Of a stretch of DNA of 64,000 bases, positions 19,986-57,306 are shown piece by piece. The stretch lies in the NCBI GenBank assembly GCA_900768465.1, contig CAAGCY010000014.1:83-64082 (forward strand), written 5' to 3'. Made by a program: the position numbers and the translations under genes. Positions within the stretch are counted from its first letter, which is position 1; every line of letters starts with the position of its first letter. The notes beneath the pieces are model-generated. The model searched no databases, was not told the origin of the DNA, and worked only from the letters and a program-made list of their open reading frames with translations. Source of the stretch: Alphaproteobacteria bacterium (lineage in GTDB: Bacteria > Pseudomonadota > Alphaproteobacteria > CAAGCB01 > CAG-977).

Positions 19986-20715
19986 ACAAGGGGACTTGTT
20001 TTTCCCAATCGGCTTCGCAATGTCTGCCGCGCACCTGCCGATACATATACGGTTGCGCGCCTTTGGCGTACAAACGGTCGTTCATTGATTTGTTGCACGC
20101 CGCCATAATCGCTTTGCCGCGCGCGCTACGGCTTTCCATCGTTCCCCAGCTCAAATAAACTTTGGTATCGGGATTTATCGGACAGTCGTCGATTGCCTGC
20201 CGCAATTCCTTGCCGCAAAAGCTGATGGCGGATGACAGACACGCCGCTTTGGAATAAGTGCCGTTATAGCGGATAACCGCGTACAAAGACATCAGCCCGC
20301 CCATACTGCTGCCGCCGATGCCCGTCGCTTCCCTGTGCGCCCAAGTCCTGAAATTCGCATCAATGTAGGGCTTCAGTTCGTCAACCATCCAGCGCATGGT
20401 TTCGTCGCCCGTGCCGTCAATCGGACCGACGAACGAATCCCAATGATACGGACAAAATTCGATTAAGCGGTTGTTGCCGACGTGCGAACATTCCAAACCG
20501 ACGATGATGATTTTCTTGCCCCAAGAATCCAGAAAATCCTTCATCCCCCAGCTTTTTCCGTAAGTCGCATCGGAATCGTAAAACAAATTGTGTCCGTCGA
20601 ACATGTACATCACGGGATAGCGTTCGTCCGTTTTATCGTAATCGTCGGGCAAATAAATGTGAATCGTGCGGTCTTCGTTCGCGGGTGAAAAATAAAGCGG
20701 CTGTTTGATAATCAT
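19963..20715 (-). CDS. alpha/beta hydrolase, putative esterase family
   Basis: YPVMYMFDGHNLF and GIGGSSMGGLMSLY (nucleophile elbow). Start moved to ATG 20713-20715; the track ORF would run into the prophage end. Confidence 0.75.
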   Translation of the reverse strand: MIIKQPLYFSPANEDRTIHIYLPDDYDKTDERYPVMYMFDGHNLFYDSDATYGKSWGMKDFLDSWGKKIIIVGLECSHVGNNRLIEFCPYHWDSFVGPIDGTGDETMRWMVDELKPYIDANFRTWAHREATGIGGSSMGGLMSLYAVIRYNGTYSKAACLSSAISFCGKELRQAIDDCPINPDTKVYLSWGTMESRSARGKAIMAACNKSMNDRLYAKGAQPYMYRQVRGRHCEADWEKQVPLFMNFLWR

Positions 20716-20765
20716 GGGCAAAACTCCTGATTCCATAAATAACGCCGCACCGCCGAATTTCAAGT

Positions 20766-20770
20766 CCAAA
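20766..20770. repeat. 5-bp target-site duplication CCAAA (left copy)
   Basis: CCAAA immediately precedes the TG terminus; an identical pentamer follows the CA terminus at 57302-57306. Confidence 0.8.
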
Positions 20771-20875
20771 TGTTGCGCGACATTTATTTTTAGACTTTTT
20801 GACAATCATTTTTAGACCAGCGGATTGCCGATTTTAAAGGGTTCTTAAACCCGGATTTGACACTTATTTTTAGAC
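20771..20875. repeat. prophage end distal to the transposase (Mu attR-like) with three GACA-N3-ATTTTTAGAC sites
   Basis: Terminus TGTTGCGC, then copies at 20779-20795, 20801-20817 (22-bp spacing) and 20859-20875. Confidence 0.75.
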
Positions 20876-20898
20876 TCGGATTGAACAGTTTTTTCGAT

Positions 20899-20931
20899 GA
20901 AAAAGGGGCGGAGTTTCAACCGCCCTTTTTT
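20899..20931. terminator. bidirectional intrinsic terminator after the HEPN-like moron
   Basis: A-run, GGGGCGG-N8-CCGCCC, T6; reads as a stem plus U-run on both strands. Confidence 0.65.
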
Positions 20932-20979
20932 GCATCGTATAGCGCACAGACTATGATATGAGGCTTAATGCCCAAAATG

Positions 20980-21807
20980 CTATCCTGCAGTATTTTGTCG
21001 CATGGCATCAAATCTCTGCAAAAGCAATCTGGTTGTGATTAGGACTATTTGTATACGGAAACAGCAATCATTTTCGTCTGACAAGCCCGGATGACTTCCC
21101 TCTGGATGTAGCCTTGACATAAGAGCTTGAATAAATTGAGGTTGTTGCGATGAAGCATGCCATTCGTTTAAATAATCCAGCAAAAAAGGCGGCTCCATTT
21201 GTCCCAAAAAATCCCTTTTTTCTTTGGCACTTCTTTCAAGAGCGCAACCAAAAGAAACGGCTATGTCATTTAGAACACTCTCAAAGAAAGCTCTTAGTTG
21301 GCTATTTGACGCCGCCCAGTTTCCATTGTCATAATTTTCAAGTGCTTGTTTTAAATGACCTAATGCTGTTTGCATTTCAAATTTTTCAAGCAATAAAGAT
21401 ACTTCATCTTTTATATCACTATATGCGTTGCAAACGGTTGAGTCGGGAAAAAATCGTACAATCGAAAAGGCATCATCTTGTTCATTTTTAATTACTGAGA
21501 AGCCATCATAACATAGCCTACGCTTAAATTTTGAGATAAGCTTTTCATCAGTTCTATCAGAAATAGCATGAACTGCATCTATGACAATATCGTGCTTCAT
21601 TGCTTCAAGAGTTTCATCTTTTTGTTCAAAGACATTAGCGACAGGAAACAATCGTTGGAGAATCGCATTACCAACATCTTTTTTTGAATACGCGTTCTCT
21701 GTGTTCAACCCCAATTCAATAGCGTATCTTGTAAGGACTGATTTCGAACAGCTGTTTTCAATAATATCAAGAGCTGTTGAAACGCTTTTTTCACTAAAAG
21801 TTTCCAT
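20980..21807 (-). CDS. AT-rich moron: hypothetical protein with C-terminal HEPN/Abi_C-like Rx6H motif
   Basis: 275 aa from ATG 21805-21807 (SD GGAGGAG 6 nt upstream). C-terminal helical region ...GHLKQALENYDNGNWAASNSQLRAFFESVLNDIA...MSRLHPEGSHPG (R237..H244 in track numbering, 21091-21114). Visibly AT-rich. Confidence 0.45.
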   Translation of the reverse strand: METFSEKSVSTALDIIENSCSKSVLTRYAIELGLNTENAYSKKDVGNAILQRLFPVANVFEQKDETLEAMKHDIVIDAVHAISDRTDEKLISKFKRRLCYDGFSVIKNEQDDAFSIVRFFPDSTVCNAYSDIKDEVSLLLEKFEMQTALGHLKQALENYDNGNWAASNSQLRAFFESVLNDIAVSFGCALERSAKEKRDFLGQMEPPFLLDYLNEWHASSQQPQFIQALMSRLHPEGSHPGLSDENDCCFRIQIVLITTRLLLQRFDAMRQNTAG

Positions 21808-21822
21808 ATCAATCTCCTCCAA

Positions 21823-21865
21823 GAAAGCACGTGAAAATAATATAATTTCCGTGCTTTCCTGTAAA
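21823..21865 (-). promoter_or_regulatory. sigma70-like promoter with flanking operator palindrome for the HEPN-like moron
   Basis: Minus strand: -35 TTTACA (21860-21865), 17-bp spacer, -10 TATTAT (21837-21842). An 8-bp inverted repeat GTGCTTTC / GAAAGCAC (21851-21858 / 21823-21830) brackets the -10. Confidence 0.55.
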
Positions 21866-21876
21866 TTATTTTGTTG

Positions 21877-22689
21877 TCAGTTAGAGATAATCAGCTCCTT
21901 GGTATGTTTGGTTCCGTTGTTATTGATGCTGTAAGTCACGGGGACGGATTCGAGGGTGAAGTCTTTGAACAGGTCGCGGATTGGTTGGACGTCGTTTAAC
22001 GACAAGATAAACCGTCCTTTAATGCCTGTTAAACAATCGCGCAACCGCTCGAAGTCGGCGCGGGTGAACACGCCTTTGCCGTAGTCGGTTTCGTTGCCCC
22101 AATACGGCGGGTCGATGTAGAACAGCGTGCCTTTGCTGTCGTAGTGTTTGATGAACGTTTCAAAGTCTTGCCGTTCAATGGTCACGCTCGCCAGCCGTCC
22201 GCCGACAGCGCGGACGCGGTCTTCCATTTTCACGAAGTCAAACCGCGCCGGACGGTCGATGGATACGCCGAACGACTGCCCCGTCACTTTGCCGCCGAAG
22301 GCTTGGCTTTGCAGGTAAAGGAACCGCGCGGCGCGTTCGATGTCCGTCAGCGTTTCCGGCGGCGTTTTCAGCAGGCGTTCAAACTCTTGGCGACCGGCAA
22401 ACAGAAACTCCGTTTCTTTATATAGAGTGTCGGGATAGCGGCGGACAATCCGATACAGATTGACCAGTTCGCCGTTAATGTCGTTGATAACTTCGGCTTT
22501 CGGGATTTGTTTGCGCCGCAGAAAGATACCGCCCATGCCGACAAACGGTTCGGCGTAAATGGTGTGCGGGATTTGTTCGATTTTGTCGATGATCCGCTTT
22601 GACAAGCGGAACTTGCCCCCCAGATAGGGGGCAAGCGGTGCTACCCGTGCGGGGGACGCTACACGCGCGGTATCAGTTTGTTTTTTCAT
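21877..22689 (-). CDS. Dam-like (D12 class) N6-adenine DNA methyltransferase
   Basis: 270 aa; EPFVGMGGIFL (AdoMet motif) and FYIDPPYWG (DPPY catalytic motif). Confidence 0.85.
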   Translation of the reverse strand: MKKQTDTARVASPARVAPLAPYLGGKFRLSKRIIDKIEQIPHTIYAEPFVGMGGIFLRRKQIPKAEVINDINGELVNLYRIVRRYPDTLYKETEFLFAGRQEFERLLKTPPETLTDIERAARFLYLQSQAFGGKVTGQSFGVSIDRPARFDFVKMEDRVRAVGGRLASVTIERQDFETFIKHYDSKGTLFYIDPPYWGNETDYGKGVFTRADFERLRDCLTGIKGRFILSLNDVQPIRDLFKDFTLESVPVTYSINNNGTKHTKELIISN

Positions 22690-22852
22690 AAAGCTTCTCC
22701 TTTGATAAAGGAGGCTCTGGGCTTTCGTTGTTGTTGCGGTTCAAGACCGTGATGGTGTTCATCGCGCCGCATCGGGGACACTTGATTTCGACCGAAGCGG
22801 AGTTCGCTTTGAACAGTAATTTATTGCATTTCGGGCAACGTATTGACTCCAT
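22673..22852 (-). CDS. com: Com-like zinc-finger translational regulator
   Basis: 59 aa from ATG 22850-22852: MESIRCPKCNKLLFKANSASVEIKCPRCGAM closely parallels Mu Com (IRC-x-CNKLLFKA...EIRCPRC). 17-nt overlap with the methyltransferase start, as com overlaps mom in Mu. Confidence 0.8.
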   Translation of the reverse strand: MESIRCPKCNKLLFKANSASVEIKCPRCGAMNTITVLNRNNNESPEPPLSKEKLYEKTN

Positions 22853-22958
22853 TGTTGTTATTCCGTATATTCGCCCCGCTCGTCGATGAGTGCGGAGCAG
22901 TTGATCTGTGCGAGGTGCTTTCTCGCGGCTTCGGACGTGTCCGCGTCCGAGCCTCCGC

Positions 22959-23168
22959 TTATTTACATTGCAGAAAGACGACATTGTTTCTATCAACTTG
23001 CCTGATAGTTTCGGCAGTGTCGTTCTCATAATCCAAATAAACGGGTTCGTACACGTCGCAAAAGCTACCGCTTATAGACGGCGTGCAACTTGTCAACAGC
23101 ATCAGGATCGCGTAGAGTTTCCCGCGCTTTGCGAGCAGTTGACAGACTTTCGGTTTTAGATTGTTCAT
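22959..23168 (-). CDS. probable o-spanin (outer-membrane lipoprotein)
   Basis: 69 aa; lipobox LLTSC after a basic/hydrophobic leader; overlaps the i-spanin gene out of frame (23065-23168). Confidence 0.55.
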   Translation of the reverse strand: MNNLKPKVCQLLAKRGKLYAILMLLTSCTPSISGSFCDVYEPVYLDYENDTAETIRQVDRNNVVFLQCK

Positions 23169-23868: not shown

Positions 23869-24302
23869 TCCTCAAAGAACAAGATGCTTGCCGTCCACCA
23901 GTTTTCCGCCGTCGTGAAGTCGCGCAGATATTGGGTGTAGCGCAACAAAGCCTTGAACGTTTCCGCGTCGTCGGTCGTATCAAAGCCCGCTTCGGTCTGG
24001 TTGCGATAGCGGTCGATTCTGTCCTGCGACGCCCGCATCATCGCGTCCCGTTCGGCACGCTTTCGGGCTTGCAGTTCCGCGACCGTCGGTTCGGGAACGG
24101 GCGCGGGTTCAACGACGACGGGCGCGGGTTTTTCGCCGATGACAAAGTACCGCATCAGCCTGCCGTTCACCGTTTTGCGCGCCGCGATGTCCTCCGCGAA
24201 CGCCGCGCCGTGTTCCGCCGCCCATCTGCGCGCGGCTTCAAAGTTCAAGTCCCGCGTGCAGTCCTCGTATTCGATTGTTTGGTTAAAGTTATATTCAGTC
24301 AT
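23850..24302 (-). CDS. tail fibre assembly chaperone-like protein
   Basis: 150 aa from ATG 24300-24302 (SD GAGGAG). C-terminal ...ETFKALLRYTQYLRDFTTAENWW resembles phage tail-fibre assembly proteins. The longer track ORF (to 24854) is an Arg/Gly shadow frame. Confidence 0.5.
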   Translation of the reverse strand: MTEYNFNQTIEYEDCTRDLNFEAARRWAAEHGAAFAEDIAARKTVNGRLMRYFVIGEKPAPVVVEPAPVPEPTVAELQARKRAERDAMMRASQDRIDRYRNQTEAGFDTTDDAETFKALLRYTQYLRDFTTAENWWTASILFFEEWSETP

Positions 24303-24307
24303 GTTTT

Positions 24308-24967
24308 TTACTCCTCTGCCATGGAAATCGTGATGTAGCCGTCGCCGGTGTTGAATCCCTGCGTGTGTTTGACGTTCGTGCATAGTTCCGGATCGGTGTA
24401 GGACGACCCGCCGCCTCCGCCGGCCGCACACGTTCCGACCTTGTTGATCAAGCCGGCTTGTCCCGCGCCCCCGCCGTACCAGCCGGCACCGCCGTGACCG
24501 CCCAATGCGGCACCGCCGAATCCGAAAGTGCCGTTGACGCTTCCGCCCGACGTTTGATTGCCGCCCGTGCCGCCTGCAAAATAAGCGGAAGCGGCACTCG
24601 CGCCGACCAGATCGCCGCCGTCGGCTCCCGCGGAAACTGCCACGCCCGAGGTGCCGTTGCCGCCGGCCCCCGCGACAATCAGACGACTGTTCAAATCCTC
24701 CGGATCCGTGCGAACATCCGACGCGTTGTAAGCGGCGCCCACTTTGCCGACGACCAGATGCAGCACTTGCCCCGGCGTCACGCTCAGAACACATCGGACG
24801 CGCCCGCCTTTTCCTGCTGCGCTGGCGGACGGCTTGCCCGATGCCGCGACGCAATCAACGGCAATTTTGCGTATCCCCGCCGGAACGACCCACGTCCCGT
24901 TTTCCGTAAAGGTCACGGGGTCAAACTTGCGCGTGTACACCAGCGTCGCCCCCTTGTAGATCTGCAA
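24308..24967 (-). CDS. glycine-rich tail fibre/receptor-binding-like protein, paralogue 2
   Basis: 219 aa from TTG 24965-24967; QIYKGATLVYTRK N-terminus shared with paralogue 1; long GGxGG-rich C-terminal domain. Confidence 0.6.
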   Translation of the reverse strand: MQIYKGATLVYTRKFDPVTFTENGTWVVPAGIRKIAVDCVAASGKPSASAAGKGGRVRCVLSVTPGQVLHLVVGKVGAAYNASDVRTDPEDLNSRLIVAGAGGNGTSGVAVSAGADGGDLVGASAASAYFAGGTGGNQTSGGSVNGTFGFGGAALGGHGGAGWYGGGAGQAGLINKVGTCAAGGGGGSSYTDPELCTNVKHTQGFNTGDGYITISMAEE

Positions 24968-24969
24968 TA

Positions 24970-24979
24970 CCCCCCCCCC
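24970..24979 (-). repeat. homopolymeric G10 tract (C10 on the plus strand) 2 nt upstream of the fibre-paralogue start
   Basis: Read directly: ...CGTC GGGGGGGGGG TA TTG CAG ATC... on the minus strand. Confidence 0.9.
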
Positions 24980-25032
24980 GACGGTTGATTGTATCTATAA
25001 GCATATTTCCCTTATAAAGTGTCATTCTCGTT

Positions 25033-53299: not shown

Positions 53300-55369
53300 T
53301 CATGCCGTCATGGCGGCTTCCATTCCGAAATCCTGCGCGAAGTCCATTCGTTGAATGTATTCAGGGGATTCGGAGTATTGGGCGAACCAGCGACGGTCTT
53401 CGGCGGAAATGCTTTCCCCTTTTTCGATTTTGTCGCGAATATCGACGGCTTTGCGGAACCTCGCCGCGGGCGTGTCAATATCGGCGGCGGGCGCAGCGTT
53501 CTGCTCCGCCTCAAACTCTTTTAAAAACGCTTCGTTTTTGGACGCTTCCTCTTCGGTCATGGGCGCAGCGGACGGCGCGGGCAAATAACGCCGCCCCATT
53601 TCCTCCAGCACTTCCTGCTGCTGTTCGCCCAATCGGGCAAGCCGTCCCTGCGCCCTTTGCTGACGTTTCTTTTCGTCATAGGCGACGGGCATAAAGGCGC
53701 GCTTGTTTTCTTCAAATCTGGCGACGCAAATCAAACGCCCCGGCAAAGTGCCGTCCCATTCGCGCACCCAAACTTTCGACGCGTCGTGAATGTCAAACCC
53801 GACGGAAACCTCTTCGTCGTGGTAGTGCGCCAGCAAAGGCGAACCGTACACGTTATTGAACAAGCTGACCAAACAGCGGGAGCATTTGCGAACCACATAC
53901 GGACGCGACAAATCGTTCACCTCCGCAGGTGTCAGAACATCGGGGCGGTAATCGGGAAAATCGGGATTTCCGGCTTCCCACGCTTCGTTCGGCGTCATGT
54001 GCCGCTTCTTTCCCGTTTCCGCATCGACAATGACGGGCAGAAAAGAATGCGGGTGGTCGTTGTAAGCGGCGAAACACCGTTCGCAATACGCGATAAAGCC
54101 TTGCCAATCGGGCAATAAGCGGCTTCTCCCGTCCTGTTTGACCTCGCGCCGATTGATGTGGAAAACCTTTTGCTTGGCTTCCGGATCCATCGGCTTGCCC
54201 ATGTATGTCGGCAACATTTTCGCCGCCTTGACCCAAATCGTCTGGTGCAGACGTTCAATCACGCCGCGCGCTTGGGAATTGTAGGCGATGCTGTTCTTTT
54301 TCGTGATGCCCAGACGGGCGCAAAACATATCGACCGTCGTGTTGTTAAACCCGTTTCCGTTGTCAACGTAGAAAACATCGGGAACGCCGTTGGTCGTCAC
54401 CGCGTGTATCAAGCTGTCCATGACGGACGCGGTCGATTCGACGATGTTCAGACTGAACCCGACGGCTTTGCGGGTATATACGTCAATAATTGTCGTAACT
54501 TCAGGGCGGAAAGGCTTGCCGTGGATCGGGTGCGCGATTTCGGCGTCGAACGTGTGTCCGTCGGCGCAATAAATCGCGCCGGGCCACAAATGCGACACGT
54601 CGCGGGAAACGTAAGCGCGGAAAGCCTTTCCCTCGCGCGCCCCGACGCGTCCCTTGTTCGCCAGCAGTTTGCCGATTTTTTCAAGGTAAAACTTCGCCTG
54701 TCTGTAACTGGGGGCAAGCGCGGGCATATTTTCCTGCATCATTTCAACGCAAGAGCTTAAAGACGGTTTTTGCGGGCGAAAATACAATCGGGCAAAAGCA
54801 TCAAACCATGCCGGAGCAACAACCTGTTCGTCCTTGGCGGGGACGGGTGTCAAGCCTTTCAATCCCGCCGTATCGCGCATTTTGTACCAGTTGAACAGGC
54901 TGGCGCGGGACAGTTTTACGGCTCCGCCCGTCTTGGCGTTCGCCTTGCGAATCAATTCAGCAAAAGACGGTTCCAGCGTTCCGTTTTTCAAACCGTTTAA
55001 CACGGCTTTAATCGCGTTGTTTTTTCCGCACGTCGCCGCCAGATTGTCAATCGCCGCCAAAACCGCGGCTCTGGCTTCCGCCGTTTCCCGCTGCCATGAC
55101 TTGGCTTCGGACAAATCGGCGTCGTCGGGACGCTCAATCACTTCTTTCGACCGCCGTTCCGGCACGTTCGACAAAGAACGGCGCGCCAGCTCTTCTTTCG
55201 CTCGGACGGGCAAAGAAGCGATATTGTATTCCTTGCCCCCGCCGCGTCCCGAACGGGGACGCGATTGCCAGTTTTCACGTTTTGCTTTATCAATGATACA
55301 GATTTTTGTTGTAGGAAGCGTGGGCAGTTTCATTTCTGCCAATTCTTGTGCCGAGAACCATTCTTTCAT
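53300..55369 (-). CDS. Mu-type DDE transposase (MuA-like)
   Basis: 689 aa; N-terminal MKEWFSAQELAEM...GGGKEYNIASLP Mu-type DNA-binding domain; DDE triad candidates CADGHTFD, YVDNGNGF, GVIERLH. Confidence 0.9.
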   Translation of the reverse strand: MKEWFSAQELAEMKLPTLPTTKICIIDKAKRENWQSRPRSGRGGGKEYNIASLPVRAKEELARRSLSNVPERRSKEVIERPDDADLSEAKSWQRETAEARAAVLAAIDNLAATCGKNNAIKAVLNGLKNGTLEPSFAELIRKANAKTGGAVKLSRASLFNWYKMRDTAGLKGLTPVPAKDEQVVAPAWFDAFARLYFRPQKPSLSSCVEMMQENMPALAPSYRQAKFYLEKIGKLLANKGRVGAREGKAFRAYVSRDVSHLWPGAIYCADGHTFDAEIAHPIHGKPFRPEVTTIIDVYTRKAVGFSLNIVESTASVMDSLIHAVTTNGVPDVFYVDNGNGFNNTTVDMFCARLGITKKNSIAYNSQARGVIERLHQTIWVKAAKMLPTYMGKPMDPEAKQKVFHINRREVKQDGRSRLLPDWQGFIAYCERCFAAYNDHPHSFLPVIVDAETGKKRHMTPNEAWEAGNPDFPDYRPDVLTPAEVNDLSRPYVVRKCSRCLVSLFNNVYGSPLLAHYHDEEVSVGFDIHDASKVWVREWDGTLPGRLICVARFEENKRAFMPVAYDEKKRQQRAQGRLARLGEQQQEVLEEMGRRYLPAPSAAPMTEEEASKNEAFLKEFEAEQNAAPAADIDTPAARFRKAVDIRDKIEKGESISAEDRRWFAQYSESPEYIQRMDFAQDFGMEAAMTA

Positions 55370-57141: not shown

Positions 57142-57301
57142 GTCTAAAAATAACTGTCAAAAAAGCGGATTGAGTCTAAAAAGCCCAATCCGCCATTTTT
57201 TTAATCGGTCTTTAAAATCCCTTTGAATCCGCCGTTATCCCGCTATATCCCCGTAAATCCCACTATATCCCGCTTGGTCTAAATATAAGTGTCAAGTCAC
57301 A
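57142..57301. repeat. prophage end proximal to the transposase (Mu attL-like) with GTCTAAA[A/T]AT-N3-TGTC sites
   Basis: Full copies at 57277-57293 (8 nt from the CA terminus, mirroring the other end) and 57142-57158; half-site GTCTAAAAAG at 57174-57183. Confidence 0.7.
57217..57270. repeat. six ATCC motifs phased at exactly 10 bp
   Basis: ATCC starts at 57217, 57227, 57237, 57247, 57257 and 57267. The next 10-bp step (57277) is the GTCT of the terminal end repeat. Confidence 0.85.
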
Positions 57302-57306
57302 CCAAA
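57302..57306. repeat. 5-bp target-site duplication CCAAA (right copy)
   Basis: Immediately follows the ...GTCACA terminus. Confidence 0.8.

Follow-up and report, generated by a model that had tools for sequence, protein, structure and literature searches.

We analysed a stretch of 64,000 nucleotides (nt) from an alphaproteobacterium (NCBI GenBank assembly GCA_900768465.1, contig CAAGCY010000014.1, positions 83 to 64,082 of the forward strand), which is called the window below and whose numbering is used throughout. It contains a Mu-like transposable prophage, and the last gene of this prophage, lying 209 bp inside its right end and immediately downstream of com and dam genes, encodes a two-domain protein of 275 residues. 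The gene is exchangeable accessory cargo in a slot between dam and the prophage right end that is filled by a TIR gene in a sister prophage, and the relatives of the gene elsewhere are associated with defence genes and mobile elements. As for what the product does, we lean, by a modest preference, towards a HEPN-type anti-phage effector, a swappable prophage cargo that would derive from a guest of restriction-modification operons.

The end repeats, the boundaries, the presence of CCAAA on both sides and the differing flanks of related insertions together identify the prophage as a 36.5-kb Mu-like transposable element spanning 20771–57301, with its right end at 20771 and its other end at 57301. 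The boundary at 20771 was fixed from a comparison of four independent insertions at this end of the prophage: homology with loci L001, L042 and L243 ends exactly there (terminal ...GCGCAACA), and the flanking DNA differs each time. The end repeat GTCTAAAAATRANTGTC has five matches in the window against 0.08 expected, three at 20779–20875 on the minus strand and two, inverted, at 57142–57293 on the plus strand. Between the end repeats lie the genes for a Mu transposase (53300–55369), a MuB-like AAA protein, a CI-type repressor and a Ner-like protein, and the element shows the hallmarks of Mu-like phages, namely MuA and MuB genes, inverted terminal repeats ending in CA, a 5-bp duplication and varied insertion sites. 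In metagenomes, at least four different flanks abut the same prophage end, as transposition predicts.

The status of the gene as cargo is clearest from sister prophages. Among the six that share the same Dam protein, five have the 275-residue gene; in the sixth (L246), the equivalent of window positions 20771–21876 (L246 4813–5743) holds a reverse-oriented, 225-residue TIR gene of the CAP12/Pycsar type (PF10137, 6e-28). The window and L246 cease to be homologous at the dam stop codon, which in L246 is followed directly by the same terminator sequence that in the window lies beyond the cargo gene, and L246 has retained the last ~13 nt of the cargo open reading frame (ORF) beside its end repeats; the placement of the terminator and the ORF remnant both indicate that one cassette replaced the other. 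A more distant allele in L041, whose protein is 67% identical, also sits after a dam-like gene and lacks the GC-rich terminator. From these two comparisons it follows that the terminator belongs to the phage backbone and that promoter and palindrome travel with the gene, and hence that the cargo unit is not fully self-contained. The G+C content (GC) is 35–41% across ~20600–22000, compared with 52–59% on either side. No relative of the cargo protein was found by tblastn in 50,697 deposited phage genomes, nor did a fold search of BFVD with the protein give any match. The combination of foreign composition (35–41% GC against ~55% in the flanks) with variable presence among syntenic phages is that of a moron, and the gene resembles the morons at the ends of P2-like, Mu-like and lambdoid prophages in these respects as well as in its own predicted promoter, conserved in L041, its end position after the last backbone gene and the alternative TIR cargo. 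It differs from them in that the terminator, common to the backbone and missing from the 67% allele, is inherited from the phage and not carried by the cassette.

The protein belongs to a large family. Sixty relatives were obtained in a single-sequence word-indexed search and 844 with a profile. When 1.84 billion cluster representatives were searched exhaustively with HMMER, with family clusters counted at 50% identity, 1023 passed E<=1e-3, of which 597 also passed E<=1e-10 and 215 passed E<=1e-30. Almost all of them are 255–295 residues long and match end to end. Twelve residues (H151, W164, N168, R172, L201, E215, G237, H239, G241, L242, S243 and R251) are invariant across 148 sequences, and H234 is present in 146 of them. 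Mean identity to the window protein is 43% in the C-terminal domain and only 19% in the N-terminal domain, as would be expected if a variable sensor were coupled to a conserved effector. Sequence and profile searches of the PDB gave only noise, and Coat_F, ornithine cyclodeaminase and ArgR (E 0.26) likewise appeared as noise-level matches; in PADLOC-DB v2, neither the window protein (E<=10) nor an operon-embedded relative (E<=0.001) matched any family. The only Pfam match to the N-terminal domain among 53 members is a weak one of P0017 to EAD7 (5.9e-5), and if this match is real, the domain might be a death-like EAD-class adaptor rather than a sensor.

Where the family lives in other genomes points to defence. 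When genomes were scanned, one per species, relatives turned up in 223 representatives, and the best 80 of those loci were examined for context, using a simple ORF caller and BLASTP for the neighbours. An MmeI-family gene lies upstream in 57 of the 80; in 47 it is the immediate neighbour, and the two genes then mostly overlap by 4 bp; a DEAD/ResIII helicase of ~682 residues lies downstream in 53, both neighbours are present in 50, and in 41 a T5orf172/GIY-YIG gene follows the helicase. Pfam and PADLOC confirmed the identity of the neighbour, with all five MmeI domains and REase_MTase_IIG at 3e-273. The nearest non-prophage relatives, P0007 and P0011 (36% identity to the window protein), are in such operons, and so is P0020. 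The same arrangement has been described for YeeA-type MmeI homologues, which have a helicase (YeeB) and a GIY-YIG protein (YeeC) as neighbours; together they were proposed to act as a Type I-like system of restriction-modification (Morgan et al. 2009, PMC2731913). In Bacillus subtilis, YeeA is DnmA, and transformation assays detected no restriction (Nye et al. 2020, PMC7261158). The usual neighbours of the family are thus those of the YeeA(DnmA)-YeeB-YeeC triad; unlike the triad as described, which has no fourth gene, these operons carry the family as an unreported insert between yeeA and yeeB, and none of the triad genes is present in the window. We found no description of the family, or of its insertion into YeeABC-type operons, in the literature and curated models. 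The conserved N-terminal segment of the MmeI-like neighbours reads ATDG-x3-eAEd, lacking the Lys of the PD-(D/E)xK motif, and on this sequence feature the neighbours may be of the nuclease-less YeeA type. Assignment of the surrounding operon to MANTIS/Gao_RL was considered and rejected, its components being different (AAA+ ATPase, DUF3870, PLD-helicase).

The position between the yeeA-like and yeeB-like genes is also filled by RhuM/PDC-S05, Schlafen-AlbA_2/HATPase_c_4, NucS_C-like or PDDEXK_4 genes (L164-L242, L007, L249, L250), and because these guests are unrelated, the gap is best seen as a cargo slot. Not all members of the family are found there: an MmeI-like partner is missing from about 23 of the 80 genomic copies, from those on plasmids and from the one in the prophage. 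These other members include copies on one conjugative element, on a small primase-bearing element and on 34 plasmids, where they are annotated 'hypothetical', and their neighbours include a Lit-family gene, PD-T7-5 and a HEPN/Toprim-associated gene.

What kind of domain the conserved C-terminal half might be was addressed with AlphaFold2 (AF2) models, whose predicted local distance difference test (pLDDT) scores were 89.5 for the whole protein and 90.9 for residues 122–275. The C-terminal domain is modelled as all-helical, with a helix-containing insert at residues 186–224. Its top Foldseek match in the PDB is the HEPN protein 1ufb (probability 1.00, E 0.08, template-modelling (TM) scores 0.50/0.59), and further HEPN matches are 1o3u, 2hsb, 1wol, 2q00, HepT 7bxo, sacsin 3o10, AbiA 8oz7 and Csm6. 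Taken together, these matches are weak, and the HEPN fold call drawn from the model is consistent but weak. In the model, helix 225–232 ends at R232, the loop 233–244 holds H239, and the last helix spans 245–274. In HEPN domains, the motif is found where a helix gives way to the loop that leads into the last helix (PMC3710099), so the R232-x6-H239 segment occupies the position expected of such a motif. H239 is present in all 148 sequences. N168-x3-R172 is invariant and E176 is found in 139 of 148; this is not the literal E-x3-[KR] of HEPN domains, and hhalign places it on the same helix as ARTLLETVCK of Abi_C. A Fic-like reading of the HP..G motif was rejected, having support neither from Pfam nor from Foldseek.

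Among HEPN proteins, the closest parallel is with the Abi_C/AbiJ type (PF14355; AbiJ of Lactococcus lactis, SadR of Staphylococcus aureus). Proteins of this type likewise have ~250–290 residues, pair a variable N-terminal domain with a conserved, helical C-terminal one, and occur stand-alone on mobile elements or within operons with restriction-modification genes. We collected Abi_C proteins from IMG/VR and metagenomes with a back-translated LRNxxGDAHG DNA pattern (the exact SadR motif pattern found nothing in IMG/VR), and three of them, used as controls, match PF14355 at 1e-22 to 1e-26 (78–91 bits). The profile comparison with Abi_C, a check proposed in an earlier note on this DNA made from the sequence alone, aligned the C-terminal domains of 148 family members with 56 Abi_C domains over 132 collinear columns with a score of 23.9 (P=0.0038, probability 8.8%), compared with 14.2 when one profile was reversed and a mean of 14.9 (standard deviation 2.5) in block shuffles, 1 of 200 of which attained the real score. 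A P of 0.004 is suggestive of kinship with Abi_C, not proof of it. Common to both are the spacing R-x6-H-x11-R (R208, H215 and R227 in Abi_C; R232, H239 and R251 here), in which the R-x6-H segment ends the penultimate helix and an invariant Arg follows the His by 12 residues, and the helix motif D[WP]xxAxxxxRT[FL]xE[ST], containing RT[LF]xE[ST]. Beyond the spacing, the Abi_C signature LRNxxGDAHG ... RHA is not shared, the window protein having SRLHPEGSHPG ... FRI; family-wide, the motif reads [RM]LHPEGSHPGLS in place of RNxxGDAHG, with an optional Arg followed by Leu, there are extra invariants at H151, W164, N168 and E215 as well as H234, and the N-terminal domain shows no similarity to that of the Abi_C proteins compared. 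The earlier note had described an R-x6-H motif in a context resembling Abi_C-type abortive-infection proteins. Its placement of the motif holds, as does a likeness to HEPN in Foldseek and a weak, collinear one to Abi_C in profiles; the Arg is not invariant, the residue after it is Leu, and Pfam Abi_C does not match at E<=10. The UniProt name of P0015 (Acetobacter conturbans WP_173571219.1), 'Abortive infection protein-like C-terminal domain-containing protein', could not be reproduced, current Pfam-A giving no match at E<=10. The C-terminal domain is probably a divergent HEPN-type domain that is distantly related to Abi_C but falls outside PF14355.

If the cargo protein is a HEPN-type effector, its C-terminal domain would form a helical bundle distantly related to Abi_C/AbiJ, with H239 in the loop after a short helix and the basic and polar residues R232, H234, R251, R172, N168 and H151 around it. 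The fast-evolving N-terminal domain would keep this domain inactive until an infection cue is sensed; the HEPN-like domain, probably dimeric, would then cut RNA as an RNase centred on H239, and RNA cleavage would abort or stall infection of the lysogen by another phage. The models for such a mechanism are AbiJ and PrrC, in which the effector cleaves RNA upon an infection cue. A stand-alone precedent is the Abi_C protein SadR, a defensive RNase that requires R225, N226 and H232 (PMC13590631). As to origin, the family would be mostly an embedded guest between the MmeI/YeeA-like methyltransferase and YeeB-like helicase genes of a Type I-like operon, and the prophage copy a stand-alone derivative that has gained its own sigma70 promoter with a conserved palindrome. 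RNase activity, a defence phenotype, sensing by the N-terminal domain and expression of the gene in lysogens are what we infer.

Several observations weigh against this. Apart from the weak EAD7 match of one member, neither the cargo protein nor its family matches any Pfam (Abi_C and HEPN_* included), NCBIfam, PADLOC or PHROG model, and PF14355 in particular has no match at E<=1 among 53 members nor at E<=10 among five. No Foldseek match reaches E<=1e-3, the TM-scores are only 0.5–0.6, and other four-helix bundles appear further down the list; our first hhalign runs, with shallow alignments against eight near-identical Abi_C proteins, gave null results. At position 232, Arg is found in 102 of the 148 sequences (69% of the family) and Met in 44, and position 233 has Leu (135 sequences) or Met (13), not the polar N/D/H of HEPN domains. 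In the Met-232 members that were read, Lys is at the preceding position, and HEPN families with the His but lacking the Arg have been documented (c2405, Parep1/8; PMC3710099). No antitoxin-like partner gene lies beside the cargo gene. The HEPN assignment of the family members is based on sequence and predicted fold, and where it is encoded within a restriction-modification operon, the protein might serve as a structural or regulatory subunit and not as an effector.

The anticodon nucleases PrrC and RloC of Type I operons (EcoprrI) provide a parallel for the operon-embedded relatives, whose HEPN-type gene is similarly inserted between modification/specificity and motor/nuclease genes (for the concept, see PMC3710099). 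Unlike PrrC and RloC, the family has no ABC-ATPase N-terminal domain, its host operon is of the MmeI/YeeA type and not Type Ic, and the window copy is solo, with no restriction-modification partner; latency through binding to the enzyme would be an analogy only. A further-reaching proposal, which we regard as possible although doubtful, is that the family is a fourth component of YeeA/YeeB/YeeC-type systems, a PrrC-like HEPN 'guard' that would fire when a phage disables the system, and that it has been captured repeatedly by phages and plasmids as a stand-alone, promoter-equipped superinfection-exclusion gene, of which the prophage copy would be one case.

The same operon context might be explained without any effector function, if the protein were a non-catalytic accessory or regulatory subunit of YeeA/YeeB/YeeC-type systems, serving as an adaptor between the MmeI-like subunit and the helicase-nuclease or as a tuner of methylation, and if the prophage copy modulated the host system or the phage Dam to the benefit of the phage. 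The 4-bp overlap with the MmeI-like gene where the two are adjacent (47 of 80), with the helicase next, would fit a stoichiometric subunit, the prophage copy comes directly after a DNA methyltransferase gene, and 30% of members do without the classic HEPN Arg; methylation-based systems are known to include small, essential co-factors whose fold is unknown, for example MtsB in MANTIS. However, the B. subtilis YeeABC triad and the set of Morgan et al. have no such gene, the same slot is occupied by unrelated guests, members on plasmids, in the prophage and at over a quarter of the examined loci have no MmeI-like partner, and the Dam of the prophage is of the D12 class, unrelated to MmeI. We consider a subunit role unlikely, if the most credible of the alternatives to an effector.

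Less probable still would be a C-terminal domain that is a metal-dependent or other non-HEPN enzyme acting on a substrate other than RNA, with H151, H239 and E215 plus H234 placed in a four-helix bundle of the DinB-like kind. In its favour, the strict invariants are H151, N168, R172, E215, H239 and R251 and not the canonical R-N/D/H...H pair, the HEPN fold matches are weak, and a few members have faint matches to the helical bundles Coat_F and TipAS. On the other hand, HEPN dominates the Foldseek matches, among which there is no DinB-like or other metalloenzyme bundle, the position and spacing of the motif agree with Abi_C, and the profile similarity is collinear. We judge such an enzyme improbable.

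The remaining question of regulation is tied to the anatomy of the cargo gene, of which the earlier note had given an account that is borne out, each sequence feature being found no more than a few bases from the coordinates given there (Table 1): the ORF lies downstream of com-dam, just inside the end repeats and at the extreme right end of the prophage, in an AT-rich block, and its sigma70-like promoter and strong Shine-Dalgarno sequence are present. The mechanical ORF begins at TTG 21822 (280 residues), and we prefer ATG 21807, a Met start that homologues share and to which the Shine-Dalgarno sequence is adjacent; the R237 and H244 of the 280-residue numbering are R232 and H239 of the 275-residue protein, the DNA coordinates 21091–21114 being unchanged. 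Between the dam stop codon and the ATG there is a spacer of 69 nt, which accommodates both the promoter and a palindrome. The palindrome brackets the -10 element as described, and its perfect arms, GAAAGCACG/CGTGCTTTC, measure 9 bp and not 8 (or 12 bp with one mismatch). In 20000 shuffles of this intergenic region, a perfect repeat of at least 9 bp arose 151 times, a promoter with at least 10/12 matches 401 times, and both together three times. The L041 allele keeps the promoter as TTTACT-17 bp-TATCAT and has identical palindrome arms, around a spacer altered by substitutions and one inserted base. The bidirectional hairpin at the end of the gene is also real, with GGGCGG-8 nt-CCGCCC flanked by A and T runs on both sides and folding energies of -21.3/-24.8 kcal/mol on the two strands (z-scores -5.1/-6.3); as L246 shows, it is not part of a self-contained unit. 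Rfam had no match across 20600–22100.

Table 1. Features of the cargo gene, its product and the right end of the prophage (window coordinates).
Feature	Coordinates	Strand	Details or basis
Coding sequence of the 275-residue cargo protein ('X'), unannotated two-domain family	20980..21807	-	ATG 21807, stop 20980-20982
N-terminal domain, residues 1-121: five helices and a beta-hairpin (predicted), fast-evolving	21445..21807	-	AF2 model
C-terminal domain, residues 122-275: all-helical, HEPN-like (predicted), conserved half	20983..21444	-	AF2, Foldseek, hhalign
R232-LHPEGS-H239, candidate HEPN-type R-x6-H motif	21091..21114	-	H239 invariant; R232 in 69% of family
R251, invariant Arg 12 residues after H239	21055..21057	-	Abi_C has an invariant Arg at equal spacing (H215 to R227)
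Shine-Dalgarno sequence GGAGGAG	21814..21820	-	6 nt upstream of ATG
Sigma70-like promoter TTTACA (21865-21860)-17 bp-TATTAT (21842-21837)	21837..21865	-	10/12 consensus matches
Inverted repeat CAGGAAAGCACG-18 nt-CGTGCTTTCTTG around the -10 element	21820..21861	.	Arms 21820-21831 and 21850-21861
Bidirectional intrinsic terminator AAAAAAGGGCGG-loop-CCGCCCCTTTTT, phage-backbone element	20899..20931	.	Fold energy and L246 comparison
Target-site duplication CCAAA, 5 bp	20766..20770, repeated 57302-57306	.	Direct read of sequence and insertion comparison
Prophage right end: ...GCGCAACA and three transposase-binding repeats GTCTAAAAATRANTGTC	20771..20875	-	Repeats 20779-20795, 20801-20817, 20859-20875
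D12-class Dam methyltransferase, last backbone gene before the cargo slot	21877..22689	-	PF02086, 3e-29
Com-like zinc-ribbon ORF overlapping the dam start	22673..23029	-	PF10122, 6e-10, residues 62-93

The earlier note had suggested autoregulation at the palindrome, and one could go further and assume that the protein is an autoregulated transcription factor, with an N-terminal domain that would recognise the palindrome in the promoter of its own gene and a C-terminal domain that would sense a ligand or partner, as in the HEPN-fold regulator MtlR. The conserved 9-bp palindrome sits at the -10 element with no second paired copy anywhere in the prophage, the early region included, the N-terminal domain is predicted to end in a helix and a beta-hairpin, and the family profile has a faint match to the winged-helix region of ArgR. 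That match, however, is not significant, conservation resides in the C-terminal domain and not in the putative DNA-binding part, and most members overlap the upstream gene and hence have no promoter of their own. Only one of 26 other stand-alone members has an upstream palindrome, against 0.7 expected; for this reason self-regulation at the palindrome is not favoured, a family-wide autoregulatory site was rejected, and we hold a transcription factor to be improbable as well. An operator for the phage repressor was rejected too, as there is no second paired copy in the whole prophage. The palindrome may instead be an operator for some factor, or an RNA hairpin within read-through transcripts. 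In transcripts reading through from dam, it is predicted to fold with -21 kcal/mol. The predicted start site of the gene's own promoter is ~7 nt past the -10 element, at the beginning of the downstream arm, which implies that transcripts from that promoter would not include the upstream arm. Antisense within the cargo gene, at 21306–21335 on the plus strand, there is a promoter-like TTGACG-18 bp-CATAAT with an extended TG and 10/12 matches; it may give rise to an antisense RNA, or it may be spurious, a product of the AT-rich composition, with 8 such sites in the region against 3.5 expected.

An ordinary late gene conserved among Mu-like phages was the alternative named in the earlier note. That reading, widened to accessory genes that serve the phage's own cycle, is effectively refuted: although the cargo gene is on the late-gene strand, directly after com-dam and in most close sister prophages, phage records and BFVD hold no homologue, its composition is foreign to the phage, a TIR gene substitutes for it in L246, and its relatives reside in chromosomal restriction-modification operons and on plasmids.

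Some further features of the prophage were noted. The Com-like ORF next to dam (22673–23029, minus strand) has 118 residues as listed, with the Com zinc ribbon confined to residues 62–93, and its true start is probably an internal Met; its overlap of 17 nt with the dam start resembles the com-mom translational coupling in Mu. At 24300–25000 on the minus strand, a region of 64–68% GC holds glycine-rich ORFs and many overlapping alternative ORFs, and their syntenic counterparts in sister prophages match ALK_LTK_GRD/Gly_rich_2 and lie among tail and baseplate genes. Close copies of the prophage (L001-L004, L243-L248) come from samples of which several are metagenomes by name (ZEEV15, STRA21, VALL22) and one, also by its name, is a Hadza-Nepal fibre sample, and none was found in the species-representative genomes scanned. 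Clusters at 90% identity have 427 members for Dam and 204 for MuA, from which we conclude that the phage group is common.

A HEPN effector on a prophage or in a restriction-modification operon is not unexpected in kind, since such effectors are already well known in both settings. Should the cargo protein be one, a name and a testable function would be given to ~1000 clusters (50% identity level) that occur in no fewer than 223 species representatives, spread over Proteobacteria, Verrucomicrobia, Acidobacteria and Planctomycetes, and that have no Pfam, NCBIfam or PADLOC model, and the sequence range of HEPN/AbiJ-like proteins would be widened to a family in which the His is invariant and the classic Arg optional. 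The gap between the methyltransferase and helicase genes of YeeABC-type operons would be a cargo slot, shared by the family with RhuM, Schlafen and nuclease-like genes, and the junction between dam and the right end in this group of Mu-like phages from human gut metagenomes would likewise be a hotspot for defence cargo, holding either the 275-residue gene or a TIR gene.

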